In this document: in pieces, positions 32,131 to 48,929 of the stretch
Position numbering within the stretch: position 1 is the stretch's first letter
Layout of the letters: every line of letters begins with the position of its first letter
Notes under the pieces: generated by a model
What the model was told of the DNA's origin: nothing
Seen by the model: only the letters and a program-made list of their open reading frames with translations
Databases searched by the model: none
Translations under genes and position numbers: made by a program
Origin: Mobula hypostoma
Lineage: Eukaryota
Direction: 5' to 3'
DNA: 64,000 bases
NCBI RefSeq assembly: GCF_963921235.1
Contig: NC_086126.1
Span: 16,120,001-16,184,000 of the forward strand

Positions 32131-32549
32131 TCCTTGGCCATGGCATGATTGGGTTAACTCACCCTCCTGCAATCTCACACATTTCCACACATACCCCTGT
32201 CTGTGCCCCCGCTGAAGTGTTTGCTTCACGTGCTTCATATCTTTCCATCCCCGTGTATTTATATGCTTTTTAATAGCCTGTTCGTAATGAATATTGTTTG
32301 GAAATTCATTCATTGCCTTCTTCTTTAATTCAGCTCAGGGAATGTACTATACATTCGCAAACAATGGCGACGGCACACGTGTTGAAACCACACAATTTGT
32401 TAGAACTCGTACTATTGTAATATAGAACAAAAAACTGATGTCTATAGTAGTAGCTGTACATAATTGAAAACAATACTTATCTTCCACTAAACAAGCCGAT
32501 CTCTGTGACTGAAGTAAACAACAGATTCCGCAATTTCACAGAACCAGTT

Positions 32550-33440
32550 TTCTATCTATCTCTCTCTCCCGCTCTGTCTCTCCCACTCCCTCTCCCTCTA
32601 TCCCTCTCCCTCTCTCTCTGTCGCTCTTTCTGTCTCTGTCTCTCTCCCCCTCTCTCTCCCCCCTGTCTCTTCCACTCCCTCTCCCTCTATCCCTCTCCCT
32701 CGCTCTCTGCCGTTGTCTCTGTCTCTGTCTCTCTCTCCCTCTCTCTCTCCCCCCGTCTCTCCCACTCCCTCTCCCTCTATCCCTCTCCCCCTCTCTCTNN
32801 NNNNNNNNNNNNNNNNNNNNNNNNNNNNNNNNNNNNNNNNNNNNNNNNNNNNNNNNNNNNNNNNNNNNNNNNNNNNNNNNNNNNNNNNNNNNNNNNNNNN
32901 NNNNNNNNNNNNNNNNNNNNNNNNNNNNNNNNNNNNNNNNNNNNNNNCCCTCTCTCTCTATCCCGCTCCCTCTCTCTCTGTCGCTGTCTCTGTCTCTGTC
33001 TCTCTCTCCCTCTCTGTCTTTCTATCTCCCTCTTCCTCACGATGTCTTATTCTCTTCACTATCTCGCTCTCTCTCTCATTGTTTTCTCTGCCTCTCCCAC
33101 AGGCCTACTCCCTCGCACTCACTCTTGCGTCATCTTTCTCGTGTCCAATCCGTCGCGCTGTCCCCCTCACGTGCTCTCCTTCGCGCCCTCTCCATCACGC
33201 CAACTCCCTCGAGCCCTCTCTCCTTCTCGCGATGTCTCCTTCTGTCGCTCTCCCTCGCGCTCACCATCGCCATCACGCTCTCCCTCACGCCCTGTAGATC
33301 ACGCTCACTCTAGCGGCATCTCCATGGCACCCCCTCCCTCACGTGCACTCCTGCGCGCCCTTTACTCGCGATGTCTCATTCGCTCTCTCCCTCGCGCTGT
33401 CTGCTGCGCGCGCTCACTTTCCCAATCTCTCTATCTCTCA
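32550..33440. repeat. CT-rich low-complexity/microsatellite tract spanning an assembly gap (N 32799-32947)
   Basis: Direct inspection. Confidence 0.9.
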
Positions 33441-33697: not shown

Positions 33698-35171
33698 TGT
33701 CATGGTCTGGTCCGTGAAGTCAGCTTTCCAGTTGACGGTTCGGTCCATCGATACTCATTCCATGTTTTCCCTTGTTCTGTTGGGGTACCTCTATTGAGGC
33801 ACACGATTTTCATTTTGGGCACCCATATGAATAGTTCCTCAGTTCAGCTTGGGTTGCTGGACTGTTCCCTTCCCTTGCCCTTCCTTCTGTAACCCTTGCC
33901 TGAAGCCTCGCCTGCAACCTTTCGCCTAAAGCCTCGCATGCTACCCTTCGCCTGAAGCGTCTCCTGCGTCCTCACCTATTCTCGCCGTCAAATTCATCGC
34001 CGGAGCTGGACAGGAGCCTGGCTGTGTCCAGATAAGGAACTGTCTTTCGTTTTTTGGAACTGTCTCTTTGTGTCCTCGCCTTCGTCAGGTAGGCCCTGCT
34101 GTTTGCGGCTACCTTGAGAAGGAACTGTCTCTGTAACCACACTTTCCTTATCTAGGTCCGGCCGTTTGCCGCTACCTAGTGTTGGGAACCGTCTCGTCGT
34201 GTTCGGCATTCTGTGTATGAGTCCCGGCCCGACGTCCTGTTCCCAAGGAGGGTCCCGGCTCTGTGTTCCATGTTCCTGTCTCTCAAGACCTAGGCTGTCT
34301 GTTCCGCGTTCCTGTCTCCCGAGTCCAAGGCTCTGTGTTCTGCGTTCCTGTGTTCCATGACCAAGGCTCTGTGTTCCGCGTTCCTGTCTCCCAAGACCAA
34401 TGCTCTGTGTTCGGCGTTCCTGTCTACCAAGGCGAAGGTGCTGTATTCCTCATTCCTGTCTCCCAAGACCAAGGCTCTATGTTCCGCGTTCCTGTCTCCC
34501 AAGATCAAGTCTGTGCTCCGCGTTCCTGTCTTCCAAGACCAAGGCTCTGGGGTCAGCGTTCCTGTTTCCGCGTTCCTGTGTTCTGCGATCCGTGTTCTTG
34601 TCTCCCAAGACCAAGGCTCTGTCTTCCGCGTTCCTGTCTCCCAAGATCAAGGCTCTGTCTTCCGCGTTTCTGTCTCCCAAGACCAAGGCTCTGTGTTCCT
34701 CATTCCTGTCTCCCAAGACCAAAGCTCTGTGTTCCTCGCTCCTGTCTCCCAAGACCTTGTTTCTGTGTTCCGCGATCCTGTCTCCCGCGTTCCTTTCTGC
34801 CAAGACCAAGGGTCTGTGCTCCAGTCTCCCAAGTCCATGTTTGAGATTCGTGTCCTCATCCAGTTCTGGTCCCACGTCCTGCCCCGGAGTCCCGCATCCT
34901 GCCCTCGACGAGACCAGAGTCCGACACCGGTTCAAGATCCTGATACCGGATCCCTGCCCAGTCTCTGGCTCGGAGTCCTTGTCCAGGTTCCAAGTTCCTA
35001 TTTCCTCGTAGAGGTCCCTCTTTCCTAACCAATGTCTCAGCCCAAGCCTGTGTTCTTGTCCCACCTCTATCTGTGTTCAGTCCCGTCCTTAATTCTAGTC
35101 CAGTCCAGTTCATTGTACTTCAGTGTCTGTGTCTTGCATTTGGGTCCGATCCCAGCGCCCCCTTTGTGACA
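33698..35171 (+). mobile_element. Large solo LTR (Gypsy-type) inflated by internal tandem repeats
   Basis: TGTCA...TGACA termini. The first 13 nt (TGTCATGGTCTGG) are identical to the start of the Gypsy LTR at 16673 and the 3' end is similar (TGCATTTGGGTCC vs TGCACTTGGGTTC). No clean TSD. Confidence 0.7.
34240..34840 (+). repeat. 36-bp tandem repeat, about 15-16 diverged copies (CCAAGACCAAGGCTCTGTGTTCCGCGTTCCTGTCTC)
   Basis: Head-to-tail units; translate as repeated QDQGSVFRVPVS. Confidence 0.92.
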
Positions 35172-35571: not shown

Positions 35572-36177
35572 TGTCGTACTGGACCAACCGATGCAAAGAC
35601 AAAGTACCACAAAAACACTAACACACGTAATTCTTTCTCAAACCTTTATTCTTTACTCATAGCCTGTTATGGGGGAAGTTACAGACTGGTCTCGCAAAAG
35701 AGCCAGTGCAGACACGGCCCCCGAATTACACAGTTCTCCACAATTTATAACATGGGTCAGGTAGCAGGAAATCTTACGAATACAGGTTTAGACAGTATTA
35801 GAATCATTTCAATCACATGCTAAGATGCAATTAGATGTAAAATAATGATTGGTCGGTTAATTGTAATTATTTTACGCCAAAGCTAGCCCATCAATTCCTC
35901 ATTCGGACCCTTCCCCTTTTCTCCGGAGCATTCTAGCCCCTACACTATACTTCCCATATTTAGCTATACCTTGAGCTGCTTCGGCAAGATCAGATAGCTC
36001 CATATTTGAGCCTTTGCCTATATTTAGACAATAATGACTAGTACGTCACCGGTTGTTGGATAAAGCTTCTTTCTGACTGTTCAAAACAGTAAGCTAAGGC
36101 GCCCACAAAGTTATTGATCATTAATTAATCATTGTTATTAGTCTACACCCATATTTACCTACCCCGTCACGCCATCA
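35572..36177 (-). repeat. ERV 3' LTR
   Basis: TGATGG...CGACA on the minus strand; roughly 88-90% identical by eye to 46025-46630; TATAAA near 35744-35749 and AATAAA at 35645-35650. Confidence 0.95.
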
Positions 36178-36188
36178 TTCCCCCCTTT
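36178..36188 (-). other. ERV polypurine tract
   Basis: AAAGGGGGGAA immediately upstream of the 3' LTR. Confidence 0.9.
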
Positions 36189-36190
36189 CA

Positions 36191-37509
36191 TCATACCATG
36201 ATGACCAAGCAAATGGGAGTCGTGCTGAGCGCCATCAGTCTTTCCGTGAAAAGTCGGCATCCAACATTTAGGCAGGTCATTATCACACAGCAAGCTATAA
36301 TTATAACAATGAGGATAATTAGCCCATGCTGTAAATAAGACCCCCATGATCCTCCCTGCAACCACCCCAACCAGTCATCCCTCTTCCCCGAACCTTGCCT
36401 GATGTCATCCAATTGTTTCTTCATAGACTGAATGGCATGGGTCACGTTGTATGATTCGTCAGTAACATGGGTGATGAATTTGTCTCCGACTATGGCGCAT
36501 ATCCCTCCCTGTTGGGCCGGAATTAATCCTGGTCTGCTGTGCGTAGAGTCGCAACTCCACCAGTTCTCAGTTAACAGCCTCCAGACCTTCCACCGTTCTG
36601 TTTCCCAATATCATCAGCCCACAAATCAGGAAGTCGAGGGTCTTTGCAGCTATGGTCCCCGCCGAAACCCCTAGAGAGACAGTCCTCAGAACCCCATAGC
36701 CCAGAGAAGAACCCAGAGTAATAGGCTTCCTCCGGTCAGTACAGAATTCCTTACTCACGGCTCGAGCTGTCAGTCGCTGTCGAACGTGGGCATCCTGAGG
36801 GCAGGGAACAGAAAGTAGTCCAATTGTTCCTACTGCAAGGAGGTTAAGCAGAGTGGTGGTAGCTGTCGTATAGGTAGCGTTGAACAATAACACATATCCT
36901 GTCTTGGCCCTGTGACAGGAAATTTTGTAACTCACTATTTTATCATGCCACAAGTCCCTGCACCTGCCGACACATGAGTCTCATTGCAATATCCACATAC
37001 ATGCTGAATTATATTAAGGAGGCGCTCGCATTGCTCGTGGATACATTTGCAAGAGAATATTCCCCGGTCTATCCTACATCGGAAGTCCGGATAATGTTTC
37101 TGCAGGCAAGGTATCTCCCTGGGAACCCTAGGAAAGACGTATCCCTCTCCCTCCCCTGCAAAACGGAAGGGGTAATCCGCAGTGCCCTCGCCAGTAGTCT
37201 CAACACCCACTCTCTTGATGCACTTTCCCATAGCCCCCCTTTTAAGCTTTCCTCTTATCCCATTACATTCTGTCCCGATCTATCCTCCACTATTAAGTCA
37301 TGTTCCACCCAATGTAACCCTGATGGGTTAGCAACAAACAATGCTTCTACAGATTTTACCGAAGGGTAACATGCAGTATGGTTACCATGCAGACGCATAT
37401 GAGTCTTATAAAATAAATTGTCTTCCAAGCGTAATACCGCGGAGGTAGTTATGATAGTGAGAAGCCCAGGAATAGTCTTTAGTCCACCTGCGGAGCCCAT
37501 CGTTTGCAA
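36191..37509 (-). pseudogene. env: ERV envelope (frameshifted): signal peptide, short Cys-rich SU, TM with internal fusion loop, ISD region and membrane anchor
   Basis: ORF pieces 37255-37509, 36935-37231, 36567-36953 and 36191-36445; AQQGGICAIVGDK(F)ITHV after ELRLYAQQTR; anchor GLIILIVIIIACCVIM. Confidence 0.88.
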
Positions 37510-38959
37510 TCACTTAGGTGGATACAGTGGCTGTGCCCTCGAACTTTAACGGCCGTAGGGGTTTGCAGTAGTATCTGGAATGGTCCTTTTCCCCGGGGTC
37601 CAAGCTTGGAGCGCTCCCAATCCCTGATCAGTACCGAGTCTCCCATTTTCAACTCCGGCCACTCCGTTCCCTGACCTCCAGTCTCCTTAAAGGTATTCTG
37701 TACCTGGGAGTGAGAAACTTTAGAGAGGATGTTAGTTGACGAAAGTACTTCTGGAATTCGTCCCCCATGACATTTAGATCAATTTGGATGGGAGGCTGCA
37801 TGTCAGCGTCCCATTGGGTCCTTCAAGGGCGCCCATAAACACTTTGAGCTGCAGATACCCCTGTAGTGGAGTGTGGGGTAATTCCCATATGGTATAAAGG
37901 CAGCGGAAGGACCTTCAGCCAACTCAGTCCGGTTTCGGACATGAACTTAGACAGCTTGTTTATCAGGGTGCCGTTGGCCCGTTCCACTATTCCTGCAGCT
38001 TTCGGGTGGTAGGCGCAATGAAAATGCTGTTCGATGCGCAGCACCTCACACAGTTCTTTATTTGTATTTCCTAAAAGTGAGGGCCAGTGTCCGAACTTAT
38101 TTGTCTGGGCAATCCGAATCTCGGTATAATCTCTGTAAGCACCAACCTTACCACCGTAGAAGCTTTATTACTGGTGGTCGGAAAGGCTTCAATCCATCTA
38201 CTGAGCACATCTACAATTACTGAGCAATGCTTACAACAGTACAGGCGTGGTAGTTCGATAAAATCAAGCTGAATACATTCAAACGGGCCACTTGGCAAGG
38301 GGGATTTTCCTGGGGCACACTTTACTCCCTTTCCCGCCTTTGTCTTTTGCCAAATCGAGCATGCTTCTATTTTTGCTGCAGCAGCTCCCTCCAGCATGGG
38401 GTGCCCCCATGTGCGGAGCAAAATATTACTCATTCCCCCCTTGCCAAAGTTGGTGTCCGTATGCAAGCAATCGAGCAACATAGGCAGCAATGCATTAGGA
38501 ATACAAACTTGCCAACCGCGGTATGCCAGAGGCCCGTGGACACCGATGCACACATCCGTGCGTCTTCCAAAGTTGTTTTTCTGAATCAGGGGCGTCCCCC
38601 TGGAGTTTTTGAACTGTAGCCCTTTCTGGAGTGCCCGGCGCTCGGAGTGTTTTAGTCAGGGTGGAGGTCAATTGTTCTGCAGTAAAGATTATAACGGTCA
38701 ACTCCTGCGCAGTCTGCTTGGCAGCCAAATCGGTCCAGTTATTTCATTTATCACTGCAGATTCGTCTTTTCGATGAGCCGAATATTTAATAATGGCGATT
38801 TTTTTCGGGGAGGTGTATGGCCTGAAGGAGGTTCCCTACATACATGGCATTCTGGATGGGGGTCCCGGAGGAGGTGAGGAAAAGGTTCCGTTGCAGACAG
38901 TCATGAGGAGGCTCAGTCAACTCAGCAAGTGCCGTCTCTAAAAATGTAGCAGGGTTGAT
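37510..38959 (-). pseudogene. pol: ERV pol 3' part (connection, partly deleted RNase H, integrase)
   Basis: INPATFL...PHDC joined directly to FLTSSGTPIQN; integrase DDE motifs in ORFs 38071-38553 and 37823-38044. Confidence 0.88.
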
Positions 38960-41900
38960 ACAGAAACATAGAAAATAGGTGCAGGAGTAGGTCATTCGGC
39001 CCTTCGAGCCTGCACCATCATTCAGTACGATCATGGCTGATTATCCAACTCAGAACCCTGAACCTGCCTTCTCTCCATCCTCCCTGATCCCTTTAGCCAC
39101 AAGGGTCATATCTAACTCCCTCTTAAATACAGACAATGAACTGGCCTCAACTGTTTCCTGTGGCAGAGGATACCACAGATTCACTACTCTCTGTGTGAAG
39201 AAGTTTTTCCTCATCTCGGTCCTGAAACGCTTCCCCTTTATCCTCAAACTGTGACCCCTCGTTCTGGACTTCCCGAACATCAGGAACAATCTTCCTGCAT
39301 CTAACCTGTCCAATCCCTTTCGAATTTTATACGTTTAAATCAGATGCCCCCTCAATTTTCTAAATTCCAGCAAGTATAAGCCTAGTTCATCCAGTCTTTC
39401 ATCATTTGAAAGTCCTGCCATCCCAGGAATCAATATGGTGAACCTTCTTTGTAGTACCTATATGGCAAGGATGTCTTTCTTCAGATTAGGGGACCGAAAC
39501 TGCACTCAATACTCCAGGTGTGGTCTCACCAAGCCCTTGTACAACTGCAGTAGTACCTCTCTGCTCCTGTACTGGAATCCTCTTGCTATGAATGACAGCA
39601 TACCATTCGCCTTTTTCACCGCCTGCTGTACCTGCATGCCCACTTTCAATGACTGGTGTACAATGAAACCCAGGTCTCGTTGCACCTGCCCTTTTCCGAA
39701 TCGGCCACCATTCCGATAATAATCTGTTTTCCTGTTTTTGCCACCAAAATGGATAACCTCACATTTATCCACATTAAATTGCATCTACCATGAATTTGCC
39801 CACTCACCTAACGTATCCAAGTCACCCTGCATCCTCTTAGCATCCTCCTCACAGCTAACACTGCCGCCCAGCTTCGTGTCATCCGCAAACTTGGAGATGC
39901 TGCATTTAATTCCCTCGTCTAAGTTATTAATATATATTGTAAACAACTGGGGTCCTGGCGCTGAGCCTTGCGGTACCGCAGTAGTTACTGCCTGCCATTC
40001 TGAAAAGGCCCCGTTTATTCACACTCTTTGCTTACTATCTGCCAACAAGTTGTTTATCCATATCAATACCATACCTTCAATACCGTGTGCATTACGTGTT
40101 CACACTAATCTCCTGTGTGGGGCCTTGTCAAAAGCCTTTTGAAAATCCAAATATACCTCATTCACTGGTTCTCCCCATCCACTCTACTAGTTACATCTTC
40201 AAAAAATTCTATGAGCTTCATCAGACATGATTTTCCTTTAACAAATCCATGCTGACTTTGTCCGATAATTTCACCGCTTTCCAAATGTGCTGTTATCACA
40301 TCTTTGATAACTGACTCTAGCATTTTCCCGACCACCGATGTTAGGCTAACTGGTCTATAATTCCCCGGTTTCTCTCTCCCTCCTTTTTTAAAAAGCACGG
40401 TTACATTAGCCACCCTCCAATCCTCAGGAACTAGTCCAGAATCTAAAGAGTTTTGAAAAAAAAATTATCACTAATGCATTCACTATTTCTTGGGCTACTT
40501 CCTTAAGCACTCTGGGATGCAGACCATCTGGCCCTGGGGATTTTTCTGCCTTTAATCCCGTCAATTTACCTAACACCACCTCCCTACTAACATATATTTC
40601 CCTCAGTTCCTCCAACTCACTAGACCCTCGGTCCCCTACTATTTCTGGAAGATTATTTATGTTCTCCTTAGTGAAGACAGAACCAAAGTAGTTATTCAAA
40701 TGATCTGCCATGTCCTTGTTCCTCATGATCAATTCACATGTTCTGACTGTAAGGGACCTACATTTGTCTTAACCAATCCTTTTCTTTTCACATATCTATA
40801 AAAGATTTTACATTCAGTTTTTATGTTCCCTGCCAGCTTTCTCTCATAATTTTTTTCCCTTTCCTAATTAAGCTCTTTGTCCTCCTGTGCTGGACTCTGA
40901 ATTTCTCCCAGTCCTCAGGTGTGCCGCTTTTTCTGGCTAATTTGTATGTTTCTTCTTTGGAAATGATACTATCCCTAATTTCCCTTGTCAGCCACGGGTG
41001 TACTACCTTCCCTTGTTTATGCTTTTGCCAAACCCGGTGAACAATTGTTGTAGTTCATCCATGCGACCTTTAAATACTTGCCACTGCATATCCACCGTCA
41101 ACCCTTTAAGTATCATTTGCCAGTCTGTCTTAGCTAATTCACGACTCATACCTTCAAAGTTACCCTTCTTTAAGTTCAGAACCTTTGTTACTGAATTAAC
41201 TATGTCATTCTCCATTTTAATGAAGAATTCCACCATATTATGGTCACTCTTACCGAAGGGGCCTCGCACTAACTCTAACTAACTCTTCCTCATTGCTCAA
41301 TACCCAGTCTAGAATGGCCTGCGAATATTCCTTGCATTGACACACAAATACTTCAGGCTTGCGTTTACAAGACTCTTAGCCCTTAAACAATTATGTTGAA
41401 AAGTGGCCCATTTTGATTTTTGCCCTGGATTTGCAGGCCTGCCACTTTTACTTTTCACCGTACTAGTTTTTGCTTCTAACCTCAGTTTACAGCCCCCTGT
41501 CTCTCTACTCTTGTTCCTATCCCCTGCCACATTAGTTTAACTCCTCCTGAACAACAGTAGCAAATGCTCCCCCTAGGACATTGGTTCCAGTCCAGCCCTG
41601 GTGCAAACCGTCCTGGTTGTACCGGTCCCTCCTCCTCCAGAACTGGTTCCATCGCCCCAGAAATTTGAATCCCTCTCCTTTGCACCAATTTTCAAGCCAT
41701 GTATTCATCTGAAATATCCTCCTATTTCTACTCTGACTAGCACGTGGCACTGGCAACAATCCAGAGATTATTACCTTTGTCGTCCTACTTTTTAGTTTAT
41801 CTCCTAACTCCTTAAATTCACCTTGTAGGACCTCATCCCGTTTTTTTTTCCTGTATCTGTGGTACCTATGTGCACCACGACCACTGGCTGTGCACCCTCC

Positions 41901-42237
41901 CACTCCAGAATGTCCTGTAGCCGCTCAGAGATATCCTTGCCCCTTGTACCAGGGAGGAATCATACCCTCCTGGAGTCTCGTTTGCCGCCGCAGAAACGCC
42001 TATCTATTCCCCTATCACTATGCCTCTCCCACTCCTTTTCCTTCCCTCCTGTGCCACAGAGCCACCCTTGGTGACGCGAACTCGACTGCTGCCTTCCCCT
42101 GATGAGCCATCTCCCCCAACAGTATCCAAAACAGTATATCTGTTTAGGAGGGATATGACCTCAGGGGACTCCTGCACTACCTGCTTTACTACTGCGCTGT
42201 TCACTGGCCTCCCATTCCCTTTCTACCTGTTTAGCCT
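38960..42237 (-). mobile_element. Long CR1 LINE inserted into ERV pol (ORF1 SGNH-esterase region, partly deleted endonuclease, RT, tail)
   Basis: KVIISGLLPVPRAS...DGLH (CR1 ORF1 esterase), KSDHNMVEF, NYRPVSLTSVVGKMLE; tail cagaaacatagaaaatagg at 38960. Confidence 0.93.
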
Positions 42238-43300
42238 GGTATCACCGTATGCAAAGGTGAGCAGTGGGTTACTAAGTGATGCTAATTTATAACGGCTTAG
42301 TCTGGCCTGAGTCAGATGTTCGGTTTGGTGGGTGGTCAGCAGCGCTACAATGCTGTGGGACGAATAGACTGTAACTGGCTGTGGGAGGGTGATGTTGGAA
42401 GCAGCCGTAACTAGGGAGTAAATGGCCGGGAGCATCTGCGAACAGCGGGGTGATCGCTTCGCTACGGGGTCTAACATTAGGGAATAATAGGCAATAGGCC
42501 TGCGTGTATCTCCATGAGTCTGAGTGAGAACTGCAGTGGCGCAATGATCTAAAACATTCACAGAAAGCTGGAACGGACGGTCATAGAGTGGGAGGCCGAG
42601 AGCAGGTGCCCTCGAGAGGGATTTCTTCAACTCCTCAAAAGCCTCTCCCCGTTGCTGAGTTAGCTCTAGGGGCCCCGTAAGCGAACGTGAAGCCAGAGAG
42701 CTAAATGCTTTGCATGCAGAGCGACATTGGGAATCCACTGTCTGCAAACGTTTACCAGCCCAAGGAAAGCACGCATGGCTTTCGGCGTGGATGGCAGGGA
42801 CGTCGCAAGGACTGGGGTCACCCTTTCTGGGGTGAGCTGCCTTTCGGTTGCACTCAAAAGGGTTCCCAGAAATCTCACTTGCCGTTGGGTTCTCTTTGCT
42901 TTTCGGGGAGGGATCACGTAACCCCACGAATGCAGAGCATTCAGAAGCGCATTGGTGTCCTGTAGGTTTGAGGTTTCTGACGGGCTTGCCAGTAGGAGGT
43001 CGTCTACGTACTGGAGCCCCCGAGAAATTGTAAACTGTAAATGTCTAAGCTGCCTATGTAATATCTGCGAGAAAATGATGGGGTAGTGCACGAACCCTTG
43101 GGGTAACCTAGTCTAAGTGCACTGCTGATCTTGAAAGGTAGATGCAAAAAGGTACTATGACTCGGGAGCAAGGGGAATTGCAAAAAAGAAAAAACGCATG
43201 CTGCAGATCGACTATGGTAATAACTTGGGAGACCGGTGGAATGTTGCTTAAAATCGTAGGGACCACCGGATGCACAGGCTGCACAATTTCATGCTTTACT
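42238..43300 (-). pseudogene. pol: ERV pol RT domain (N-terminus and protease deleted)
   Basis: VHPVVPTIL...IVDLQHAFF, LPQGFVHYP, LQYVDDLLL, LSRAPALGLP, RPIAYYSLMLDPVA. Confidence 0.9.
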
Positions 43301-44777
43301 CTGGTTGGCTTGGAATCCTTGCTGTAACTCCAAAAATGCTCAACTGCCCTCTTCATGGCCTGCTTATTCCTATCTGGTCAGTCTATATCAGTTCTAATAG
43401 CCTTGGACACGTCCTCGGGGAAGCACTGCAATATCATTGAATTAAACTGGGGCGAAGTATTGCCAGGCATTATAGGCGGCATCACCAGCGTAGGCTGCAT
43501 AAAGGGAGCAGAAGTGTTCCCAAAAATCGCAACAGTCTTCTCCCGCCTGTGGGCGGCACTCAGGGACCTTAACGATGTCTGCGGGGCGCTGCAAAGCCTT
43601 CTTTAGAGCCTTCGTTGTTTTGTCCATCTGTTCTGCGGGCGGGGTTGCGGTGGAAAAGGACTCCCAATTGGCATGATCCCCTGCAGCTTCTTCTTTTTTT
43701 CTCCTGTTCACTGGTCGCAACAGCCATGCAGCACAAGCTAAAAAGATCCTGCGGAGTCGCCTGAAACATTTGGGTTGTACCAACCAAATAATCGATAAAT
43801 CCCTCGGGATCCTTTTTTCCTGTTCGGGGCCTGATTCATGATCATACACATTTCTTGTGGCTTTCAAGGAGCATAAACCTGCATAGTAGCCGCCTGGTTC
43901 GGCTGCCCTACCCTAGGGTTAGAAACGGTCCTGTTGGGAAATTGCCCCGGGTTCCCTCTCCCTCTGGGTCTCGAGTCTTCGGAATCATCATTTTCAATAC
44001 TAGAGTGATAACCAGTATCCGTCTCAGGGTCTATCAGGGGGCCATCTCCCACCAAAAGGTTTCGTCGCTTCCTAGCCTGGCTCCTATTACTCACCCGTCG
44101 CCGAAGTTATCCCCCGGTTCGGGAGGCTGTTGGGCATGGGGGCGGTGTATTCGGAGGTGCTTGGGGTTGGGCAGCCATAACGTTATATGGGGGTGGCGGC
44201 GCCGTGCGTTGGGGTCGAATGCAGGCAACTGGAATGCGCCATACCTCCTCCTCCTCAGTCTCATTTTAATTAAAGAGCATGGGCAGTCCACACAGGTCAA
44301 GACGTCCCTCAGTTTTACTTTTTCTGGCTCCATCATAACCTTCCGTCTATCCTTAGCCCACCTATCTCTTTTTTCCCTATCCTGTTTTTCCTTATTCTTA
44401 TCGTGATCCTCGCACAGTCCTTTTAATATTTCCCACCGTTTCGAATTTCCTTCATTGTCACATACACTAATCCCTCTGCGACGTGCTTTGTGCTCCCAGC
44501 TACTTTGCTTAGATCTGTTATTTAATTCCTCGGCCGTTATTCTCCGATTGGACATTTAAACCTTCCATTTTTGTCCGGTATTACGCTTCCAAATTACTTC
44601 TTCTGCCTTTAGACAGTTATCTAAATCCCAGGTCCCACCCAGAGGCCAAATTCCACTCCCCAATTTCTTACTTAGGTAAGCCGATAACCTTCGGTAAACA
44701 TTCTCTCTCTCTGGGTCATCTTTACAAAGTTTAAACAATGGCGTGTTGTTTACAGACTTATCTAATGTCTGCCCCAT
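43300..44777 (-). pseudogene. gag: ERV gag (degenerate, 3' end deleted)
   Basis: MGQTLDK myristoylation-type start, WPLGGTWD, and capsid-like DIVKVPECRPQAGEDCCDFWEHF (MHR-like). Confidence 0.8.
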
Positions 44778-45324: not shown

Positions 45325-45729
45325 CTTTAAAGCCAGGCTTTTACTCTTTGGAGAGAAGGAGGATGAGAGGGGACATGATAGAGGTGTACAAGATAATAAG
45401 AGGAATAGATAGAGTGGATAGCCAGCGCCTCTTCCCCAGGGGACCACTGCTGAAAATAAGAGGGCATGGCTTTGAGGTAAGGGGTGGGAAGTTCAAGGGG
45501 GATATTAGAGGAAGGTTTTTTACTCAGAGAGTGGTTGGTGCGTGGAATGCACTGCCTGAGTCAGTGGTGGAGGCAGATACACTAGTGAAGTTTAAGAGAC
45601 TACTAGACAGGTGTACGGAGGAATTTAAGGTGGGGGCTTATATGGGAGATAGGGTTTGAGGGTCGGCACAACATTGTGGGCCGAAAGGCCTGTACTGTGC
45701 TGTACTATTCTATGTTCTATGTTCTATGT
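45325..45729 (+). mobile_element. Short CR1 3' fragment inserted in the ERV leader
   Basis: ERRRMRGDMIEVYK...FFTQRVVGAWNALP; (ttctatg)3 tail. Confidence 0.92.
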
Positions 45730-46001
45730 ATCACAATACTTCGTCGGGGACTGTAACCCCTTACCTTACCTTATACTCCGTTGGGGACTCTAGCCTCTCT
45801 TTTAACCTGTGGTACTCGGACGATCTCAGCTCAGATTTCGGAAGGAGTCTGTCAGAGGATTACCCGCCAGACGAGGGGATCGTCAAAGTGGGCCATGAAT
45901 GAGAGAGGTCAAGGTAAATCTTACCTTGTGGGCCCACCTGTCTCAGGTCACCGCCATCGAGCCAACCGCTGGCACCGCCTCACGACAACCACGTTTTTGG
46001 A

Positions 46002-46021
46002 CTCCTGACTTTGGCTCGCCA
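46002..46021 (-). other. ERV primer-binding site, tRNA-Arg(ACG)-like
   Basis: TGGCGAGCCAaaGtCAGGAG, 3 nt after the 5' LTR, versus TGGCGAGCCAGCCAGGAG expected (from memory) for the vertebrate tRNA-Arg(ACG) 3' end. Confidence 0.75.
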
Positions 46022-46024
46022 AAT

Positions 46025-46630
46025 TGTCGTACTGGACCGACCGATGCAAAGACAAGGTATAAGAAAAACACTAACACGCGTAATTCTTTTTCAAACCTTT
46101 ATTCTTTACTCATAGCCTGCTATGGGGGAAGTTAGAGACTGATCGCCCAAAAGAGCCAGTCCAGACACTGCCCCCGAATTACACAATTCTCCACAATTTA
46201 TAACATTGATCAGGTAGCAGGAACTCTTACGATTACAAGTTTAGATAATATTAGAATCATTTTAATTGCATGCTAAGATACAATTAGATGTAAAATAATC
46301 ATTGGTCAGTTAGTTATAATTATTTTAAGCCAAAGCTAGCCCATCAGTTCCTCATTCAGACCCTTCCCCTTTTCTCCAGAACATTCTAGCCCCTACACTA
46401 TGCTTCCCATATTTAGCAATACCTTGAGCTGCTTCTGCAAGATCAGGTAGTTCTTTTCTTTAGCCTTTGCCTGTCTTTACAGAACAACGACTAGTACGTC
46501 ACCGGTTGTTGGGTAAAGCTTCTTTTGGACTGCCCAAAACAGTAAGTTAAGGCGCCCACAAGGTGATTGATCATTAATTCATCATTGTTCTGAGTCTATA
46601 CCCCAATTTACCTACCCCTTCACACCATCA
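46025..46630 (-). repeat. ERV 5' LTR
   Basis: Colinear with 35572-36177; AATAAA at 46098-46103. Confidence 0.95.
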
Positions 46631-46669: not shown

Positions 46670-47577
46670 TTATTTCTCACGTTTCATGAGTTTAAAGATC
46701 CGATTCAGTGGGCATTTCACAGCATTCTGTAGTTCCTCTCGAAATTTGCTCTGAGTCAGTGCGTACACACAGGTATTGGTGCAGGAACTGAGAATCTGCA
46801 GCAATTCAGATGTGTGTCCTGTGATGTAACGGGGATCCGTGAGAGAATAAACAAAACTCCTTGAAATCCGTCTGTAGATATAAAATACCACGTATGTTCC
46901 CCACAACAATATGAAACTACCGGTTATGCTGAAGAGCAAAACGATGGATTTGCGTCGGTTCTCCATCTCCCGGTCCTTGTCATTCGCTCTACTGCTTTGT
47001 CCCCGGAGACCCCTGCGGGCTCGACTGGCCGCTAAAATCCGCCTGACAGTCAGAATATTGAACAGCAACATTAGAAAGAATGGGAAACATGGGGTTAAAA
47101 TGAGTTGAAACATCACAAATGCCGCCCATGAGGAAGAGTTTGTGAAGCTCGGTGTATAAACACAGCCCCAGGGAAAACCATCAATTATTTCTTCAGGTTC
47201 GTGTATAAAGCCCCAGGGAACAGTCTCCAAACAGGCCAGCACACTCACTGTCCCGATAACCACAGCCGCCGTTCTCTCGGTGCAATATTTTGTTCTCAAT
47301 TTCCCACAGCAAATAGCCACAAATCGATCGACGGTGAAAGCGGCAGTCAGCCAGACTGAGGCCGCAGTGCTCGCAGAAACCAACCATTGACCAAGTCTGC
47401 ACACAGGAGTGATTCGCAGGAATGATCGCGGAAAATAAATCTTAGAAGTCCACTTTAGTAGCGGTTCCGAGAAAACGACCAGGAGATCGGCCGCTGCCAT
47501 TCCCACCAGGTAACGAGTGATACATTTGGAGAGACCGCACTTTCCCCGGGACAGGATCACAATCGCCACCAAGTTCG
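46670..47577 (-). CDS. GPR139-like GPCR paralog B, exon 2 (with exon 1 at 48930-48999 gives 325 aa)
   Basis: Acceptor ctgtctcccttccag|CGAACTTG in phase 1; ANLVAIVILSRGKCGLSK, MAAADLL, FTVDRFVAICC, CTNTCVY; frame intact. Confidence 0.93.
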
Positions 47578-48929
47578 CTGGAAGGGAGACAGGGAACAGC
47601 AAGTCGAGAAAATACTGAGCAGAAGACAATGCAGCAATTTGTAATATCCTGTAATATTGTTGCATTTAGCGGTGGGAGGGTCTGGAGAGGGCGCAGAGCT
47701 GCCGGAGACAGAGAAGGAGTTTACACAGTAAAATAAATTCTTTGTGATCTGAACACGGATTCCTTACTGATGACCGAAATGTACAGTGTCAACGGAAAGT
47801 TAAAGCTGGGTAACTACCTCCTCAGAGTAAATACTGGAAGGGACATTTTCTACCGGCGCCTTCCGGGTCTCGTCAGGGTGAAATGAATAAATCCGGACGC
47901 TTATGGCGGGATTCTTCCATTAGACAATCATCAACTTCCATGGCGATTCCCGTCAGCGACAGAACAGCCGAAGGACGGAACAAAAACATGAAATGCAGGA
48001 AACGCTCATCCAGGGAAAACAGAATATGTGGAAAATCAGTTAAAGTAGCTTTCCTCAGAACTGTTCTCAGAGAGACCCCTGACACGAGGGTTAACTGGTT
48101 TCTCTTTCCATACAAGCTGCTTGGGGCTTAGTGTTACCAGCATTCCCTGAGTTTGTTTCCTATTCCAGCATTTACCACCTCACTGACTTTACAACAGAAC
48201 ATTGACTGATTCCAACAGATACAGCGCGGTCTGACACAACCTCACAGACAGACATGACGCCTCCCGCTGAATCCATCACAGGGAAACAGCGGAGCGGAAT
48301 TGAAACTCGGTGCCTTAGTCAGAAGTCTGTAACGGTGTGAGGTGCAGATGTAATATAAAACATTTCACAGTATTGACAAATATGAAGCACCACGTCGGTT
48401 GTGTTAATTGACTCAGCATCGACTTCATTGTGTCTTCTATCAACTGCTTTATATTCAGTGATATCGCAGACATTTACTAAAAATCCACATCAGTTTCGTG
48501 TTACAACACGGAACTCCTCACATTTGCTGAAGTGTTACTACAGTCGATGGCTTGATTGTTGCTCCTAAGTGGACAAACACATTCAAATAATCAATTTACA
48601 TAAGTTCCGCGGGGTGTATAAACACAATATTTGTAAATATAGTGCAGCTGCTACAAGACCAAAAGCAGAGAGCCGAACATCCCATAATTAATCACAAACC
48701 GCTGGAAGAACGCTGCCTGACCCGCCCAGTCCCACAGAAATTGGTCGATTCGCCGAATTCCTGCAGCGGTTTGTTTTTAGATAGTAATCCCAGCAACTAT
48801 CGTCCCGGTGTTTCCACTCCACTCCTGAAATGCGGAATACGGGGACTGGAAAGATACAGTTTAAACCGGCGCAGTATCAATCACACCAAACTTCAACATC
48901 CACCCAGGGCAGCTGACACTGCGGCTCAC

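Follow-up and report, generated by a model that had tools for sequence, protein, structure and literature searches.

The origin of the filovirus and reptarenavirus glycoproteins (GPs) is a long-standing question. Ectodomains of shark and skate endogenous retroviruses (ERVs; Fig. 6 hosts, Chiloscyllium, Scyliorhinus, Amblyraja, and Leucoraja) have been placed as sister to GP2 of Ebola, Marburg, Lloviu, and Mengla viruses (posterior probability, 0.83), with Tapajos virus beside lizard elements (Barreat and Katzourakis 2024, PMC11521997); a table in that paper includes the lizard envelope Mab-Env2 with an N-terminal hit. A term search of Horie 2021 returned no passage on a retroviral GP link. Alpha-like envelopes with a Cys-flanked fusion peptide and a gamma-like pol are known from bats, reptiles, and amphibians (caecilians), with no mention of sharks in the sections covered (PMC13568524), and CXnC variants in anamniotes, together with new envelopes unlike the alpharetroviral N-terminus, were reported by Chen et al. 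(bioRxiv 10.1101/2021.11.23.469661). Here, we describe the envelope gene (env) of a decayed provirus in a 64,000-nucleotide (nt) stretch of contig NC_086126.1 (positions 16,120,001 to 16,184,000; "the window," to which all coordinates refer). The element is a class I ERV and most likely belongs to the cartilaginous-fish clade that Barreat and Katzourakis tied to filovirus GP2.

A preliminary description of the locus proposed a Cys-bounded internal fusion loop of filovirus or avian sarcoma/leukosis virus (ASLV) type. Our analysis confirmed this feature, and likening it to GP2 is justified. The locus does bear on the origin of filovirus GP, as that description held, but the evolutionary link itself was already published in 2024. 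What the locus adds is a view of the parts outside the ectodomain, and these favor capture of an envelope as a whole. Literature searches, leaving aside subscription papers and Chen et al.'s figures and supplements (S1 Fig scores "Alpha_FP"), yielded no earlier account of such a Cys-flanked loop in the envelopes of sharks or rays.

The envelope gene

All proviral features lie on the minus strand, and env was read by three-frame translation of positions 36100 to 37560. The surface subunit (SU; 36765..37500), delimited by tblastn against an intact whale-shark relative, comprises a signal peptide and a Cys-rich region of about 240 amino acids (aa) broken by stops and frameshifts, with its terminal Cys at 36803. 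It ends at a basic junction, RQRLTAR (36762..36782), which was aligned with relatives P0019 and P0020 and is not a canonical R-x-K/R-R furin site. The transmembrane subunit (TM) starts with polar residues (AVSKEF) right after VRQRLTAR. Its residue 7 is the first Cys of the predicted internal fusion loop (36621..36743), for which translation, copies, relatives, and hydropathy all speak: the cysteines at 36743 and 36623 are spaced exactly C-x39-C, the Gly/hydrophobic segment between them starts about 15 residues into TM, and 11-residue hydropathy windows reach about +1.35. Translation thus reproduced the basic site, polar TM start, and Cys pair of the preliminary description.

The next part of TM (36446..36620) holds heptad repeat 1 (HR1) with a sequon, the immunosuppressive domain (ISD; partly deleted, with one stop and one frameshift), a CX6C loop without the third Cys, and a second sequon. 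After the second loop Cys, the reading runs through LICGLMILGNRT and the first sequon (Asn at 36602) to a stop at 36569-36567; past the stop come ELRLYAQQTR, a frame change, and QQGGICAIVGDK with a Cys at 36499, and the second sequon follows in DESYNVT (Asn at 36448). Heptad repeat 2 (HR2), a Trp-rich membrane-proximal region, the membrane anchor (about 36270-36325), and a short tail occupy 36191..36445. In all, the env reading has to cross one stop and a gap, of 11 nt or more when set against most other copies, that removes part of the ISD, and the second Cys of the CX6C loop is lost. The preliminary description passed over these points, as it did over the family's having CX6C where Ebola virus and ASLV have CX6CC. 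The window copy is a dead fossil that makes no such protein.

Conservation was counted over the 20 best of 42 matching copies, window included, in which some misses are misaligned frameshifted copies. The first loop Cys is kept in 19/20 and the second in 17/20, the HR1 sequon in 17/20 and the second sequon in 13/20, and the CX6C cysteines in 16/20 and 15/20. The ISD is present in other copies and in relatives. A third Cys (CX6CC) occurs in 0/20 copies and in none of the family proteins, and a canonical R-x-K/R-R site at the SU/TM junction in 0/20. The same design recurs in sawshark, whale shark, horn shark, cloudy catshark, manta, and further proteins, with 39 to 43 residues between the loop cysteines, so that the pair goes beyond chance. 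P0019 and P0020 carry canonical furin sites at the aligned place, which fixes the position of the junction; elsewhere in the family, the junction conforms to the general convertase motif, with Arg at P1 and P6, and an R-x-aliphatic-Z motif of the S1P type overlaps it (PMC8310232).

A second branch of the family (P0021, P0202-P0215, and P0013), including a 52-member cluster in Scyliorhinus torazame with some proteins of 664 aa, has an extra Cys-rich N-terminal domain of about 150 to 170 aa before the SU core. This domain is possibly a separate receptor-binding module.

Comparison with known glycoproteins

Searches with the single window copy gave nothing relevant in Pfam (env pieces) and 0 matches at E<=10 in PDB (phmmer, loop piece), so profiles were needed. 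For profile A1, built only from fish-type sequences, the top PDB match was filovirus GP2 (E, 7e-18), aligned without gaps from shortly ahead of the second loop Cys through HR2; the reptarenavirus CAS virus GP2 (9e-9) and syncytin-2 (3e-7) followed, with ASLV absent at E<=10. The likeness to Ebola GP2 thereby holds, filovirus GP2 being the closest among solved structures. A wider profile, A2, placed ASLV at 1e-6, level with syncytin-1; since A2 includes Tapajos virus GP, its filovirus E values are not independent, and GP2 kinship rests on A1. The suggested kinship with ASLV was not borne out, its TM being no closer than those of syncytins. Both sequons fall at GP2-equivalent columns as described, but both are also present in 39 of 114 rows of ordinary gamma-type envelopes that have no loop, and we rejected the sequons as evidence of GP2 kinship.

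Among the best 150 of 786 matches in a search of 1.84 billion sequences were Mab-Env2, Tapajos virus GP, squamate ERV envelopes, and Mengla, Lloviu, and Marburg GPs. The family belongs within this wider loop-bearing group of Mab-Env2, Tapajos virus GP, squamate ERV envelopes, and mammalian filovirus GP2. Several of the squamate ERV envelopes (P0080, P0095, P0108, P0129, and P0150, from Pseudonaja, Ahaetulla, Phrynocephalus, and others) have Cys-bounded loops of 42 to 52 residues and no third Cys.

Filovirus GP1/GP2 (Ebola, Sudan, Marburg, Mengla, and Lloviu) shares with the family a Cys-bounded internal segment (C-x44-C versus C-x39-C here), a gapless HR1-ISD-CX6C-HR2 core with both sequons, and a predicted GP1-like SU core. 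It differs in having CX6CC and a loop sequence not significantly like that of the family (15 to 196 of 500 shuffles as good), whereas SU here is short, without detectable sequence similarity to GP1, and lies in a retroviral genome. Like the family, Tapajos virus GP and Mabuya Mab-Env2 lack the third Cys; they are of similar length (461 to 470 aa), have a C-x37-C loop, and share with it a homologous SU start (significant for Mab-Env2) and an SU-terminal cysteine motif; they differ in CX7C, TM identity of 23 to 30%, and reptile hosts. The loop sequence here does resemble Tapajos and squamate loops (0/500 shuffles as good). Reptarenavirus GP2 shares HR1-CX6C-HR2 homology in the CAS virus match given above, which is weaker than that of filoviruses. 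The Barreat and Katzourakis ERVs agree in ERV context, host group, GP2-like HR1-ISD-HR2, and short LTR-to-LTR (long terminal repeat) length, and the best viral hits are of the same set, namely, GPs of filoviruses, Tapajos virus, or CAS virus. That paper treats the ectodomain only, without discussing the fusion loop, missing third Cys, cleavage site, or SU fold in the sections covered, and a myliobatiform ray is the likely host here.

ASLV Env and alpha-like envelopes (PMC3758190; PMC13568524) share the Cys-flanked internal fusion peptide and HR1 sequon, and those of bats and reptiles are also paired with a gamma-like pol (PMC13568524). ASLV differs in its CX6CC and class II pol, and alpha-like envelopes are reported from tetrapods only in the sections covered. 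The pairing of a class I pol with a TM bearing a Cys-bounded internal hydrophobic segment was upheld at this locus by RT (reverse transcriptase), MLVIN_C, and translation, but as a type of pairing it is not new, having been published for tetrapods (PMC13568524). Chondrichthyan syncytin-like candidates (Proudley et al. 2026, bioRxiv 10.64898/2026.05.06.723177) are also shark and ray class I ERVs with an ISD; they were filtered for R-X-X-R and all have CX6CC, whereas the family here has neither at its junction and loop. Against the gamma-type Env of Henzy and Johnson, the ISD is present, and CX6CC and an N-terminal fusion peptide after a furin site are absent; against avian gamma-type/alpha-like Env, the Cys-flanked loop is found at sequence level, and CX6CC is again absent. 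Because it lacks CX6CC, the env is not a strict member of either type. The filovirus/ASLV-type layout stands for the internal loop and fails for the third Cys, which defines avian gamma-type envelopes and GP2 alike.

We infer from structure prediction that SU is a compact GP1-like beta-sandwich. A sequence comparison of SU with Tapajos virus or mammalian filovirus GP1 gave nothing above shuffles, and its model had no Foldseek match at E<=0.001 in PDB or BFVD; the VIA list for the SU model contained no alpharetroviral SU, which excludes nothing. The full-length env model (predicted local distance difference test [pLDDT], 58; predicted template modeling score [pTM], 0.33; loop under pLDDT 50) gave helix matches only in VIA and weak matches in Foldseek. 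The leads toward ASLV-type envelopes are weak and model based: avian gp85 clusters in ESM Atlas (0.92 to 0.93 for the SU part, uncalibrated) and EAV-HP Env in Foldseek (E, 2e-4, but TM-score, 0.12).

Mechanism and alternative explanations

We are fairly confident that this is the decayed env of a multicopy class I ERV of cartilaginous fish whose ancestor likely entered cells via a filovirus-style class I fusogen with a predicted disulfide-closed internal loop. Provirus anatomy, class I pol, the conserved C-x39-C, gapless HR1-ISD-CX6C-HR2 homology to GP2, and the lack of a third Cys are observed directly. TM would be released by a likely cut after the conserved Arg of the noncanonical basic site, made by a proprotein convertase that recognizes Arg at P1 and P6. 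By analogy with GP2 and ASLV (PMC9967133; PMC3758190), the two loop cysteines would then bond and close the loop, whose hydrophobic tip would insert into the target membrane, and a six-helix bundle would form as HR1 and HR2 refold. Because the third Cys is lacking, SU and TM were likely held together noncovalently or by a different bond.

TM might instead be that of an ordinary fish gamma-type envelope with an N-proximal fusion peptide, its two cysteines incidental or bonded to SU in place of the third Cys, and its GP2 likeness a matter of convergence or slow evolution. Four points speak for such an envelope: both sequons are common in ordinary envelopes, ordinary fish envelopes exceed filoviruses in raw TM identity (35 to 39% versus 26 to 31%), many gamma-type envelopes outrank filovirus GPs in the best 150 matches above, and a single loop-bearing clade is weakly supported. 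However, in filoviruses, Tapajos virus, Mab-Env2, squamate envelopes, and the family alike, the second loop Cys lies 35 residues ahead of the ISD Asp, exactly at the GP2 column, and every full-length loop row has a partner Cys 37 to 52 residues upstream. A Cys at this column occurs in 45 of 162 aligned rows, and 108 of the other 117 have CX6CC. When the trait columns are removed, a 64-row tree sets the 33 loop-bearing rows together on one side (77/80), which leaves TM, with weak support, outside the ordinary fish gamma-type envelopes. A missing Cys pair or a place among those envelopes, either of which the preliminary description had named as fatal to its proposal, was thus not found, and we regard an ordinary envelope as unlikely.

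Because the family has a loop and a likely GP1-like SU beyond the ectodomain, it suggests that filoviruses likely took the whole envelope from such a virus. In its full form the proposal is tentative, and we are somewhat more doubtful of it than convinced: the family would preserve the ancestral whole filovirus spike (compact GP1-like SU, Cys-closed loop, and GP2-like core), and mammalian filoviruses and, separately, Tapajos virus would have captured the entire env, not the ectodomain alone, from a single ancient lineage of loop-bearing retroviruses with its root in cartilaginous fish. Nearly all of Tapajos virus GP can be aligned with Mab-Env2 (P0026 and P0040; 28% identity across 434 aa), and this capture therefore covered SU as well as TM.

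It is a serious possibility, short of a probable one, that the family is closest to Tapajos virus and Mab-Env2, that its likeness to Ebola-type GP2 reflects shared ancestry of all loop-bearing envelopes, and that mammalian filoviruses took their GP from a different loop-bearing lineage, for instance, squamate ERVs. One tree joined fish with Tapajos/Mab-Env2 (78/94) and mammalian filoviruses with squamate loop envelopes (91/81), in keeping with the common lack of a third Cys, the SU start and terminal motif, and the loop-sequence likeness. A second tree (90/86), like the published one, favors fish with mammalian filoviruses, and the alignment to GP2 is gapless where Tapajos and Mab-Env2 need CX7C and a 2-residue gap. 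Approximately unbiased (AU) tests rejected neither sister-group alternative (p-AU, 0.072 and 0.27). The trees are unrooted and comprise no ASLV or reptarenavirus row; the first omits near-duplicates and all but 30 nonloop rows (6 chosen, 24 random), the second omits P0010, P0038, P0080, P0027, and P0007, and row P0195, labeled Zaire ebolavirus, has a Marburg-type GP2 ectodomain and adds no independent Ebola row. A closer tie to Tapajos/Mab-Env2 alters the sister group only and leaves the mechanism unchanged.

Unrooted trees give no direction, and the retrovirus might have acquired its env from a filovirus-like RNA virus. That we consider very improbable: the ISD/CX6C module is universal in gamma-type retroviral envelopes and reported absent from fish filoviruses (PMC11521997), and loop-bearing envelopes are widespread in shark, ray, and squamate ERVs.

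Provirus structure, copies, and age

The provirus lies between a 5' LTR (46025..46630; TG...CA) and a 3' LTR (35572..36177), both 606 nt, which were compared with each other (88.9% identity; Kimura two-parameter distance, 0.12; 0 gaps). The primer-binding site (46002..46021), complementary to host tRNA-Arg(ACG) genes, is slightly decayed in the window copy and exact in copy L021. A non-proviral repeat of about 400 bp (45329..45730, no strand assigned), absent from copies L021 and L031, is inserted in the leader. A decayed gag (43290..44777, ends approximate) with capsid at its end, without any match in Pfam, was labeled by position and likeness to related elements; it is joined directly to mid-RT, and nucleocapsid, protease, and the RT start are missing. 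The first part of pol (42237..43290; Pfam RVT_1 and RT_RNaseH) holds RT (YVDD) and a connection/RNase H-like region, decayed. A 3.3-kb long interspersed nuclear element (LINE; 38960..42236, minus strand), likely of CR1/L2 type, splits pol, and the remainder (37479..38959) contains the RNase H end, integrase core (Pfam rve), and a murine leukemia virus (MLV)-type integrase C-terminal domain (MLVIN_C; E, 5e-13). A polypurine tract (36178..36190) follows env.

The best solved relatives of RT are MLV and xenotropic MLV-related virus (XMRV) RT (E, 6e-27, versus 3e-12 for foamy virus), and among named sequences it comes nearest to one of Mobula (78%), with those of Amblyraja, Scyliorhinus, and Leucoraja next, which points to a ray as the likely host. 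A 4-bp target-site duplication, typical of class I, was read in three copies (L022, L030, and L031), and 2/4 bases match in the window copy. The gamma/epsilon-closest RT, YVDD, and MLV-type integrase C-terminal domain make the element a class I ERV.

The host genome holds at least 42 DNA matches at 77 to 93% identity, besides the window copy, and 106 env protein matches (92 of 1111 candidates scored). Among these 106, no env is full length and stop free, other loci being possible; host co-option (syncytin-like), for which intact copies had been put forward as candidates, therefore has no support in this genome. LTR pair distances across copies range from 0.02 to 0.17, and under an assumed rate of 1-2.5e-9 substitutions per site per year, uncalibrated for this host, the window copy would be about 24 to 60 million years old. 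The in-frame capsid/mid-RT join at about 43290 is common to 9/12 long copies examined; it is full length in the window copy, L021, L022, L024, L026, L027, L030, L031, and L032, partial in L023, L025, and L028, and absent in L029. The amplified form was likely defective but retained env, and a helper would have spread it.

The LINE within pol carries a GDSL/esterase-like open reading frame (ORF) 1 remnant and an RT, and related repeats recur across the window. Upstream of the provirus lies an intact single-exon rhodopsin-family G protein-coupled receptor (GPCR) ORF (46670-47665, minus strand; 331 aa; 7tm_1 E, 4e-23), whose stop is about 40 bp before the 5' LTR, which may supply or disturb the GPCR 3' end. 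Downstream are a 36-bp tandem array and a CT-rich microsatellite region (34152-34867 and 32531-33270).

Implications

Surveys of env genes in which CX6CC and a furin site serve as filters are likely to overlook this family, and its co-option in rays and sharks has therefore probably not been tested so far. The locus adds characters that can be mapped on trees: the loop, the third Cys, and the SU motifs. If the family does preserve the ancestral spike, the internal-loop design would go back to early jawed vertebrates, and the SU-TM disulfide would have been gained or lost within the lineage.
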